A stretch of DNA of 64,000 nucleotides. It comes from Escherichia phage JL22. How positions within the stretch are numbered: the first letter of the stretch is position 1; every line of letters begins with the position of its first letter. The position numbers were made by a program. Below are positions 59,501 to 62,500 of the stretch, one piece after another. The DNA is taken from sequence record ON018986.2. One strand, written 5' to 3'.

Positions 59501-62500
59501 TGACCGGTATATTCAAGTACATCAAGATAAACTGGGCTACTGCCACCAGCCGTTTCCCATGGCTTGCTGATTATTTTGTTCTGACAGAAACCGCTTTCTA
59601 TGAGATTACTGGTAAAGGTGTATGGACTGTAGTACCGAAGGGCTTTCGTCTGGGAAGTGAAGAAGCTCTCGCCGGTGAACACGCAGATCATCTTCTGTAT
59701 ATTATCGATGAAGCCTCCGGTGTCAGTGATAGAGCTTTCGGTATCATCACCGGTGCTCTTACCGGACAGGATAACCGCATCTTATTGCTGTCACAGCCTA
59801 CACGCCCAAGCGGCTATTTCTACGATACACACCATAAACTGGCCAAGCGTCCTGGTAACCCTGATGGCGTTTATACGGCGATCACGCTTAACAGTGAGGA
59901 ATCACCGTTGGTAACGCCAGCATTTATCAAAATGAAGCTGGCGGAGTACGGCGGGCGTGATAACCCTATGTACATGATTAAGGTACGCGGCCTATTCCCT
60001 AAATCACAGGATGGCTTCCTTCTTGGACGTGATGAGGTTGAACGTGCAACGCGGCGGAAAGTCAAGATTGCCAAAGGATGGGGCTGGCTTGCATGTGTGG
60101 ACGTTGCTGGTGGTACGGGACGGGATAAGTCCGTTATCAATATCATGATGGTGTCCGGCCAGCGAAATAAACGCCGTGTAATCAACTATCGAATGCTGGA
60201 ATACACAGACGTTACAGAAACGCAGCTTGCCGCCAAAATTTTCGCAGAATGTAATCCTGAGCGATTCCCCAATATCACCATAGCGATAGACGGCGATGGC
60301 CTGGGTAAAGCAACGGCGGATCTGATGTACGAGTATTATGGTATTACCGTACAGCGTATACGCTGGGGTAAAAAGATGCATAGCCGTGAAGATAAGAGCC
60401 TGTACTTTGATAAACGTGCTTATGCCAATGTTCAAGCCGCAGAGGCCGTAAAATCTGGTCGTATGAGACTGGATAAGGGTAATGAAACTATTGAGGAAGC
60501 GTCGAAAATCCCTGTAGGGATTAACTCCGCAGGTCAATGGAAGGTGATGAGTAAGGAGGATATGAAGAAAAAACTCAACCTGCACTCACCAGACCATTGG
60601 GATACATATTGTTTCGCTATGCTGGCGGATTATGTTCCCCAGGATGAAGTGCTTAGCGTCGAAGACGAAGCGCAGGTTGATGAAACTCTGGCATGGCTTA
60701 ATGAATGAATATTTGCTCTAATAAATTGTGTTTTTTAGCTACCGATGTTACATTGAACCTGACCTCTTGCGCCTTGTGGCATTTTCGGTTTATGCTTATC
60801 AGGCACCTCATTAAAACGGGTGCCGGGATTGAGACCCCGGATAATGCAAAAGGCGACACAGACGCCAAAAGCGTCTTTTTTTGTGTCATGCCATCGCACA
60901 GCCATACGTAGCGTTTAGCTCAGAGATCAATGGTAGTGCTGGCTGGGCTGCCGAAAGGCAGGCCGGTTCCCTTTTGCGCCGGTAGTCTCAACCCAGTCAG
61001 TGCTACCGCCATTGAGATTGAGACCTCACGCGGTAGCTCCTTAAATTAGCAAAAGGAGGCTGCCATTGTGGCTACTATCCCTACCCCTGCTCATTCTGAA
61101 TTTATCTGGCGCTTTTACTCCTGCCAAAAACGTCACTATCACTTCGTTATTGCACCGACAGAAGATGAGGCACGTTCTCAGCTTCCGGATGCTCCCTGTA
61201 TTTTCTCTGCCCGCTTTTCTACCGATTCGCGCAATTCTCTCAGTTACTGGTGCCTCCCTGTTAACGCTTCTGCTCAGGAGGGACTATGAGAACGTCATTA
61301 GTCACCCGTGAAGAGATGATCGAGGCAATTGAACAGCACACTGCCTGTATCAGTACCAGGGATATACCGGGCGTTATTGCCAACTACTTCATGATCACCA
61401 AACAACTTTACCGGAGAAAGGACAAACACGCAGTTCACCGCATTCTGCTAACCGATATCCGTGAATACCTGCTCGAACAGGGTCATCTGAATTACGCAAC
61501 CGTCGCAGCCGAAGCACGCAAGGAGGCACACAGAATGAAAGCAACTAACGTTAAATCAGAAAAAATTTATGCACCTTCAGTTCAGGAATCGGAACTGGTG
61601 GTTGTTCAGAATCAGCCGGATGAAATTCCCGTTCTGGAATGGCAGGGAGTACGTGTCGTGACAACCGAAACTCTTGCTAGAGGGTATGGGGTCGATGAAG
61701 CCAATATTCGCAACAATTTGTCTCGCAACCTTGACCGCTTTGAAGAAGGTAAGCATTACTTTCTTCTAACTGGTTTAAAATTAAGAGAATTTAAGAACAG
61801 AGTAACCGGAAGTTACTCTGTTGGTAAGAACGCCAGAAGCCTTACACTCTGGACAGAGCGCGGCGCTGCACGCATGTCTAAGATCGTGGACACAAATGAA
61901 GCATGGGCATTCTTTGAAAAACTGGAAGACAGCTACTTCCGGCAAAAAGAACAGCAACCGGTTGCAATCCCCCAAACATTACCAGAAGCCCTACGCCTGG
62001 CTGCCGAACTGGCTGAACAAAAGCAGCTTCTGGAACAGAAAGCCCACCAGCTAAATCAGCAGCTGGTGGCCGCCGCTCCTAAGGTCGATTTTGCCGACCG
62101 GGTATCAGTAGCTAAAGGGATCCTGATTGGGAATTTTGCAAAGGTTGTTGGACTTAAGCAAAACGCGCTGTTTGCCTGGTTACGGGAGAACGGCATCCTG
62201 ATAGCGTCCGGTGGACGTAAAAATGTGCCGTTCCAGCAGTACATCAACGCGGGGTATTTCACGGTGAAAGAAGTGGTGCTGGATGATGAAGATGGCTACC
62301 AGATACGGTTGACGCCTCAATTAACGGGTAAAGGCCAGCAGTGGTTGACGCGTAAACTGCTCGATGCTGGCTTGTTAAAACCGGTGGCAGCTGAATAATG
62401 GAAGAATGCCCGGTTGATGCCGGGCATAATTTATTGCGCGCTTTCGGGGTTGTCGTTTACTGGCTGCCCCTTCTTGGTTTTACGGCTGCGCGTAACTGAT

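Follow-up and report, generated by a model that had tools for sequence, protein, structure and literature searches.

Introduction

In the immI operon of phages P1 and P7, a C1 operator lies over the -35 element of the first of two promoters, and a leader containing the target segments a1 and b1 and a terminator-like hairpin is followed by the antisense RNA C4 (approximately 77 nt), by icd (73 aa), and by ant, which is entered through an ATGA overlap, contains the nested ant2, and encodes a C-terminal KilAC domain. According to the P1 annotation, C4 pairs through two segments, a' (single-stranded) and b' (in a hairpin loop), with a1 and b1 upstream and with a2 and b2 downstream, b2 being located at the icd ribosome-binding site. 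The usual textbook picture of P1 immunity comes from P1 and P7, each of which has a single immI. Here we describe a block, referred to here as cassette B, that occupies positions 60709-62430 in 64,000 nt of Escherichia phage JL22 (ON018986.2; this whole stretch is referred to as the window). The window represents a P1-like phage-plasmid that also contains a canonical immI (cassette A). Cassette B is a second immI module, real and well-supported, that is paralogous to P1 immI and has a D6/Gifsy-type leader.

Related arrangements are found in other phages. Immunity of phage P4 likewise depends on a processed small RNA (CI) from the leader of its own operon, which pairs with repeated targets (seqA/seqC) on both sides. 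P4 CI causes premature termination of the replication operon, and P4 is not known to contain icd or ant. P4 SeqA has been called a structural homologue of IsrK (PMC4825925), the RNA that stands at the head of the isrK-orf45-anrP locus of Gifsy-1. In Gifsy-1, transcription reads through the IsrK terminator, translation of the antirepressor gene downstream increases more than 100-fold when IsrK is provided in trans (PMC4825925, Table 1), and AnrP was reported to raise antQ expression (PMC4825925). Phage D6 contains an immI-like region consisting of c4, icd (orf83), and an antirepressor gene (orf82), and the D6-like pYU39_89 was reported to contain a second c4-icd region (PMC6799933).

The insertion between pacB and c1 was noted without analysis in one sentence, with mention of RCS47 (Venturini et al. 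2019; PMC6906374), and RefSeq annotates Ant and Icd-like proteins at cassette B. In a literature search that did not cover the article describing the genome of D6 (Gilcrease and Casjens 2018), we found no paper on the RNAs, operator, specificity alleles, or prevalence of cassette B.

Cassette B is inserted between pacB and c1

The inserted block is bounded by the stop codons of its two neighbors, as determined by comparing filled and empty sites. pacB ends at 60708 (stop codon 60706-60708), while c1, which is on the minus strand and encodes a 283-aa protein 99% identical to P1 C1, ends at 62431 (stop codon 62431-62433) and is followed by coi. The two stop codons are separated by 1,722 bp in JL22 versus 24 unrelated bp in P1 (NC_005856), and P1 homology breaks precisely at both stop codons, on the pacB side and on the c1 side. 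The initial annotation knew of no gene at this position in P1, and this is correct; P7 and phiW39 likewise join pacB directly to c1, and in a megablast search with positions 60600-62500 as the query the matches of P1, P7, and phiW39 were confined to the two flanks, at the pacB end and at the c1 end. On these grounds we rejected the possibility that canonical P1 or P7 carries the cassette.

The window had been described as containing two modules in which an operator and a leader precede Icd-like and Ant-like genes, one of them, at 7713-9300, followed by kilA and repL. Both modules were recovered. Cassette A consists of an operator (7713-7729), a1b1 (7790-7843), C4 (7912-7997), icd (8045-8266), and ant (8263-9300), all on the plus strand, and then kilA and repL. 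For cassette B, the initial annotation claimed a second icd-ant cassette with a C1-type operator between pacB and c1, and every one of these elements is present where it had been placed. Since all P1 immI sequence features are present in cassette B, the claim is supported at the sequence level. Anatomy, homology, RNA complementarity, covariation, purifying selection, and distribution of cassette B are established by the data below, in which features are on the plus strand unless noted otherwise. We consider it likely that the block at 60709-62430 represents another immI-type operon, complete and functional, that was acquired as a unit and is wired like canonical P1 immI, with an RNA lock that is orthogonal to the canonical one.

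In the megablast search, the full block was found in RCS47, in vB_EcoM-673R5, and in 307 PLSDB plasmids (those with at least 80% coverage of the cassette), always in the interval between the terminase gene and c1. A query representing the empty site, made by fusing the final 400 bp each of pacB and c1, matched 703 PLSDB plasmids, and its two halves were adjacent in 317 of them. Overall, cassette B is carried by approximately 44% of sequenced P1-like plasmids in PLSDB. Its leader is present in 410 of 5,426 complete Escherichia coli genomes, almost always on plasmids. Of the 15 chromosomal places, the one that was inspected (NCTC9040) is no home of the leader outside P1-like elements: a P1-like element there carries the cassette at the same pacB-c1 site. 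We therefore rejected the candidate explanation that cassette B is an assembly duplicate of cassette A, given that the Icd proteins are 73% identical, the center of Ant and the C4 RNA are different, and the block occupies the same site in hundreds of records.

A few copies depart from this pattern. In pPK8217-139kb (NZ_CP080123), a fusion connects the pacB 3' end with the final third of ant-B, and the terminal hairpin of the block and c1 are intact. This copy is a deletion remnant, so some of the nearly empty sites that were scored as adjacent were formerly filled. The locus IMGVR_UViG_2698536372_000019 contains a tandem partial duplication, which runs to the equivalent of approximately position 62250 in ant and begins again in pacB, at the position equivalent to 60665; both a genuine duplication and an error of assembly are conceivable.

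Operator and promoters

A C1-operator-like site, TTTGCTCTAATAAATTG, is located at 60712-60728. It has two mismatches to the P1 C1 operator consensus and aligns with P1 Oc4 (formerly Op51), as well as with the operators of P7 and of the canonical cassette. The window contains 14 C1-operator-like sites with three or fewer mismatches, versus 0.47 expected. As in the immI operons of P1 and P7, the site overlaps the -35 element of a P2c4-like promoter at the head of the operon. This upstream promoter-like site (TTGTGT-17-TACATT, 60726-60754) matches the consensus weakly, has a -35 element that overlaps the 3' end of the operator, and occupies the position of P1 P2c4 (formerly P51a; TTGTAT, TATCTT). 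A putative downstream promoter (TTGCGC-18-TATGCT, 60767-60796) occupies the position of P1 P1c4 (formerly P51b; TTGACC-17-TATAGT), and transcription from it is predicted to start near 60803, where the match to the IsrK model described below has its first base. A promoter scan picked up neither of these aligned promoters, and the upstream one is below its threshold.

In the region 59224-60803, the late genes pacA and pacB are co-oriented with cassette B. The pacB stop codon is 3 bp from the operator with no terminator between them, and late transcription could enter cassette B up to the IsrK terminator.

The leader encodes an IsrK-type RNA and a C4 antisense RNA

A leader had been noted in cassette B, and it is indeed present; it contains two RNA genes that were not named at the time, an IsrK-type RNA and a C4 RNA. 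The IsrK-type leader RNA is located at 60803-60881 (Rfam RF01394, 59 bits versus a gathering score of 50), and the c4-a1b1 Rfam model matches with 22 bits over 60790-60843. Target a1 (TTGAGAC, 60829-60835) is in a hairpin loop of the IsrK-type leader, and target b1 (GCAAAAGG, 60846-60853) is in a single-stranded part of it. A hairpin resembling an intrinsic terminator, AGACGCCAAAAGCGTCT followed by seven T (60860-60883), marks where the short IsrK-type RNA ends and corresponds to the terminator helix of the isrK model. By analogy with Gifsy-1, this terminator may be the point of read-through.

The C4 antisense RNA gene, C4-B, follows at 60926-61013 (Rfam RF01695, 75 bits versus a gathering score of 45). 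From alignment with P1 c4, we predict that mature C4-B spans approximately 60932-61008 and has a length of 77 nt, as in P1. In P1/P7 immI, C4 is cut out of the operon transcript, by RNase P on its 5' side. The predicted mature RNA of cassette B ends in ACCGCC and the next base is A, which places a CCA-like sequence at the 3' boundary. Its b' segment (CCUUUUGC, 60970-60977) is in the loop of hairpin 2, while its a' segment (GUCUCAA, 60985-60991) is single-stranded. The downstream C4 target region (61012-61059) contains a2 (TTGAGATTGAGAC, 61012-61024) and b2 (GCAAAAGG, 61049-61056), the latter overlapping the icd Shine-Dalgarno sequence AAGGAGG (61053-61059).

The a' segment is complementary to TTGAGAC at 60829 and 61018, and the b' segment is complementary to GCAAAAGG at 60846 and 61049, with C4-B and its targets forming paired runs of 7-9 bases per site. 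The 64 kb contain exactly three occurrences of the motif TTGAGAC-N(5-35)-GCAAAAGG (a1b1, C4 as the reverse complement, and a2b2), versus 0.01 expected. The canonical cassette has its own motif in the same three-fold pattern, and a motif search of the window found no further targets of C4-B or of the canonical C4 (C4-A). Across eight homologues, 12 pairs of the C4 closing stem are kept through two-sided changes. In the RNAalifold consensus, the long C4 stem and hairpin 1 were present; hairpin 2 was not recovered, the alignment being out of register. A mixed MAFFT alignment of the leaders of both cassettes likewise placed the a' and b1 columns out of register, and it was replaced by a matrix of complementarity calculated for each sequence.

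RefSeq places a coding sequence for a 39-aa 'ash family protein' (60930-61049) on the C4 gene. The open reading frame has no NCBIfam match and no counterpart in P1 C4, and it is probably miscalled.

The C4 lock has diversified into at least four specificity types

An exact-match search of IMG/VR with the pacB end and operator retrieved 32 loci, to which RCS47, 673R5, and D6 were added for typing. The slot contains at least four C4 specificity types, and in each of them C4, a1b1, and a2b2 carry matching changes. Type B1, found in the JL22 window and in D6, pairs a' GUCUCAA with TTGAGAC and b' CCUUUUGC with GCAAAAGG. Type B2, found in RCS47, has the a' of B1 and pairs b' CCUUUGAC with GTCAAAGG, while type B3, found in IMG/VR loci such as L023 and L032, has the b' of B1 and pairs a' GUUCCAA with TTGGAAC. 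Type B4, found in 673R5 and 18 of the 32 loci, pairs a' AGGCCAA with TTGGCCT (a1) and TTGGTCT (a2), and b' CCUUGGAC with GTCTAAGG. The first approximately 130 nt, which comprise the operator, the promoters, and the first IsrK hairpin, are nearly identical across all types.

When every C4 was scored against every target, the cognate pair always obtained the top score; C4-A scored low against the targets of cassette B, and C4-B scored low against those of cassette A. As judged by complementarity, these data demonstrate a different specificity for the antisense-RNA lock, where the initial annotation had considered one possible for the antirepressor. The covariation of three sites is the strongest evidence from sequence comparison that the antisense system of this slot works and diversifies.

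The a2 region of type B3 (L023) retains the first TTGAGATTG repeat, with which the B1 a' can pair, while the B3 a' cannot pair with B1 targets; one-way cross-immunity between B1 and B3 is possible. The icd-B start codon is GTG in type B1 at the slot and ATG at the same position in types B2-B4 (examples are L001, L002, L010, and L023) and in D6. The canonical C4 (7912-7997, with targets at 7829-7849 and 7998-8033) is a P1/P7 hybrid that combines an a' of P1 type (CUGUCAA) with a b' of P7 type (CACAAUC), both with matching targets, and C4-A would half-match each of the classical immunity types.

Icd-B and Ant-B

icd-B (61068-61289) has a GTG start and encodes 73 aa that match NCBIfam phage_ICD_like (49.9 bits) and phrog_1426. 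Its stop codon overlaps the start of ant-B (ATGA), an overlap found in every intact copy that we examined. The two Icd-like proteins of the window had been estimated as about 70 percent identical, which agrees with the 53 of 73 residues (73%) counted here. ant-B (61286-62398) encodes an Ant1-type product of 370 aa that matches phrog_63, 'anti-repressor Ant', over its full length (454 bits). Ant-B consists of an Ant1-like part (residues 1-95), an ORF6N domain (Pfam; residues 116-200), and a KilAC part (residues 258-359). An in-frame internal product of Ant2 type is predicted at 61535-62398, where Met84 lies behind AAGGAGG-N8-ATG in the same arrangement as the annotated P1 ant2; this start context is conserved between cassette B and P1.

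The Ant proteins of the two cassettes had been said to share a near-identical C-terminus and to differ at the N-terminus. The first part stands, as the KilAC parts are 90% identical. The N-terminus is not the main difference, being 58% identical over residues 1-95; the proteins differ in their centers, which are approximately 33% identical in a gapped alignment. The center of Ant-B contains ORF6N while that of the canonical Ant (Ant-A) does not, and residues 122-225 of Ant-B are 54% identical to Gifsy-1 AnrP. Both Ants are full-length members of phrog_63, with Ant-B outscoring the canonical protein, and both centers match the same PHROG, phrog_1726, so that they may be distant homologues. Among solved structures we found no homologue of Ant-B. 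The relation to canonical Ant (membership of phrog_63 and the identities of the N- and C-terminal parts) suggests that Ant-B may bind and inactivate C1.

Excluding the JL22 copy, 18 of the 32 IMG/VR loci were long enough to judge ant. The genes are intact in 14 of these 18, with an icd of 73 aa, the ATGA overlap, and an ant of 364-372 aa, as they are in JL22; in the other four, ant is truncated or icd is broken. Comparisons between types gave dN/dS values of 0.07-0.33 (ant) and 0.05-0.22 (icd). icd-B and ant-B are under purifying selection.

Cassette B is a mosaic of P1-, D6-, and Gifsy-1-like parts

Sequence comparison indicates that cassette B is a mosaic of P1-, D6-, and Gifsy-1-like parts. 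Its operator/promoter head is P1 immI-like, the 3' end of its ant is P1-like, and the center of Ant-B is related to Gifsy-1 AnrP as described above. The leader, C4, and the beginning of icd (60802-61129) share 95% identity with the immI-like region of phage D6.

One close relative is P1/P7 immI, with which cassette B shares the order of its parts, homologous parts, and each of the features of immI given in the Introduction, from the operator placed over the -35 element of the first of two promoters to the nested ant2 and the KilAC C-terminus. However, cassette B is located between pacB and c1, is convergent with c1, and is not followed by kilA-repL. It also differs from P1/P7 immI by an IsrK-type leader, an unrelated C4 specificity (a' GUCUCAA, b' CCUUUUGC), and an ORF6N-centered Ant, and it is a second immI copy in one genome. 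D6 has a', b', a1, b1, a2, and b2 segments identical to those of cassette B, but it lacks a P1-type operator at the aligned position, its genomic context is different, and its orf82 antirepressor is only 23% identical to Ant-B in an alignment.

Gifsy-1 resembles cassette B in the succession of an IsrK RNA with its terminator (79 bits in Gifsy-1, 59 bits in cassette B), a C4 homologue, and an ORF6N antirepressor-like gene. It lacks icd, an Ant1-type N-terminus, KilAC, and a C1 operator, and its reported output is antQ activation. While orf45 is coupled to the antirepressor gene in Gifsy-1, in cassette B it is icd that overlaps ant, and the 39-aa open reading frame at 60930-61049 ends before icd. 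AnrP is a single-domain protein that acts on antQ, whereas Ant-B has three parts and is AnrP-like only in its center. We compared only the immediate neighbors of the two loci; a Q-antiterminator gene lies immediately upstream of isrK in Gifsy-1, while cassette B has pacB upstream and c1 downstream.

An Rfam scan of Gifsy-1 (NC_010392) placed isrK (79 bits), a c4-a1b1 match overlapping it (48 bits), and a C4 homologue inside 'orf45' (69 bits) within 34131-34329 on the minus strand. With a C4 homologue and a c4-a1b1 element, the IsrK locus is a relative of immI that lacks icd. For Gifsy-1, a processed orf45' RNA of approximately 80 nt was reported (PMC4825925), and this RNA is probably the C4 homologue. 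The activation in trans by IsrK fits an a1b1-bearing RNA that titrates a C4 element. Cassette B thereby connects the Salmonella work on IsrK with the classical C4 system.

Proposed mechanism and alternative explanations

For cassette B we infer C1 binding, promoter use, RNA processing, repression, an Ant-C1 interaction, and an ecological role from its sequence, and we propose the following course of events. In a lysogen, C1 bound to the operator at 60712-60728 would shut the upstream promoter, while the weak downstream promoter would constantly produce the short IsrK-type RNA ending at 60860-60883, together with some read-through transcript from which the 77-nt C4-B would be processed. The b' loop and single-stranded a' of C4-B would pair with b2 and a2 and cover the icd-B ribosome-binding site. 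Since ant-B is predicted to be translationally coupled to icd-B through the ATGA overlap, an untranslated icd would leave the cell with neither Icd-B nor Ant-B, and transcription would probably end early, as in P1. If transcription exceeded C4-B, as in an infected cell without a matching C4 or upon loss of C1, Icd-B and two Ant-B products would be made, and Ant-B would inactivate C1. By analogy with IsrK in Gifsy-1, the a1 and b1 segments of the short IsrK-type RNA may make it a decoy for C4-B.

Given the lack of cross-pairing between C4-A and C4-B, the two cassettes would represent two independent locks in one element. As a prophage, the element is expected to repress the antirepressors that incoming relatives of either type bring along, and those of D6-type immI as well, given that the D6 C4 contacts are identical to those of C4-B. 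An invader should escape lysogens that have just one of its two C4 types.

Several observations weigh against this proposal. The operator TTTGCTCTAATAAATTG deviates from the consensus with T at position 1 and G at position 17, and both promoter-like sites fit the sigma-70 consensus poorly. The role of a1b1 is called 'putative' in the P1 annotation itself. The center of Ant-B is AnrP-like and unlike that of P1 Ant, and its target could be other than C1. Furthermore, a minority of copies are truncated or deleted, which indicates that the module is dispensable.

Other explanations were considered. Ant-B might be regulated as proposed and yet act on the repressor of another, co-resident prophage (cross-talk) or on a promoter, as in the AnrP-antQ pair of Gifsy-1, and cassette B would then be a module for cross-talk or host manipulation. 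The 54% identity of residues 122-225 to AnrP, compared with approximately 33% in a gapped alignment to the P1 Ant center, points in this direction, as does the reported effect of AnrP on antQ (PMC4825925); trans-acting antirepressors are documented among Salmonella prophages (PMC3121763). We consider a target other than C1 rather unlikely, because Ant-B retains an Ant1-specific N-terminus (58%), the internal ant2 start, and a 90% identical KilAC part, because it is a full-length phrog_63 protein that scores above canonical Ant and shares phrog_1726 with it in the center, and because the cassette is under a C1-type operator and adjoins c1.

The selected product might instead be chiefly the C4-B RNA, as a defense against incoming antirepressors of D6 or B type, with icd-B and ant-B accompanying the RNA as its necessary target and context and of no use to the element itself. 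The identity of a', b', and their targets between cassette B and D6 would suit such a role, the 5' region, nearly identical elsewhere, varies most at the specificity determinants, and ant is truncated in some copies. Against this, ant-B and icd-B show purifying selection (dN/dS 0.05-0.33) and are intact in most copies, and 1.3 kb of conserved coding sequence would be superfluous in a pure RNA decoy, so that this explanation appears somewhat less probable still. It is very improbable that cassette B is an artefact of assembly, a duplicate without function, or a hitch-hiker in decay. It does have a C-terminal ant sequence in common with the canonical copy, and there are a few deletion and duplication derivatives; however, it has diverged too far from the canonical copy to be an assembly duplicate, it recurs at this site in phage isolates and in hundreds of independent, complete plasmids, and the three-site covariation and low dN/dS argue for function.

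Implications for immunity

If both modules work, two RNA locks in place of one would govern superinfection immunity, mutual exclusion, and the induction caused by incoming relatives in the approximately 44% of sequenced P1-like plasmids that have a second, orthogonal immI next to c1. Resistance genes are present on many P1-like elements, and the matter therefore concerns which phage-plasmids can co-exist and which displace others. We put forward, as a tentative idea that may well prove wrong, that the pacB-c1 slot is a second, fast-diversifying RNA 'key' locus with at least four alleles, that it forms a two-key heteroimmunity together with the canonical immI, and that the IsrK-type RNA is a C4 sponge that sets the threshold. 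If this were true, a prophage would be protected only against relatives whose two keys both match, and an invader would win with either key unmatched. RNA-based immunity specificity would then be a main axis of competition among resistance-spreading phage-plasmids, and P1-like, D6-like, and Gifsy-type prophages would be linked in one cross-immunity network.

Other features

A G+C-rich hairpin with a 9-bp stem (62406-62427, assigned to no strand) is located between the convergent ends of ant-B and c1. It is within the insert and missing from the P1 spacer, and it is probably a two-way terminator or an insulator of c1 against convergent transcription. Elsewhere in the window, Rfam models identified three tRNA genes (65-75 bits) at 33869-34019 and 35650-35722. 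P1-family genomes carry tRNA genes.

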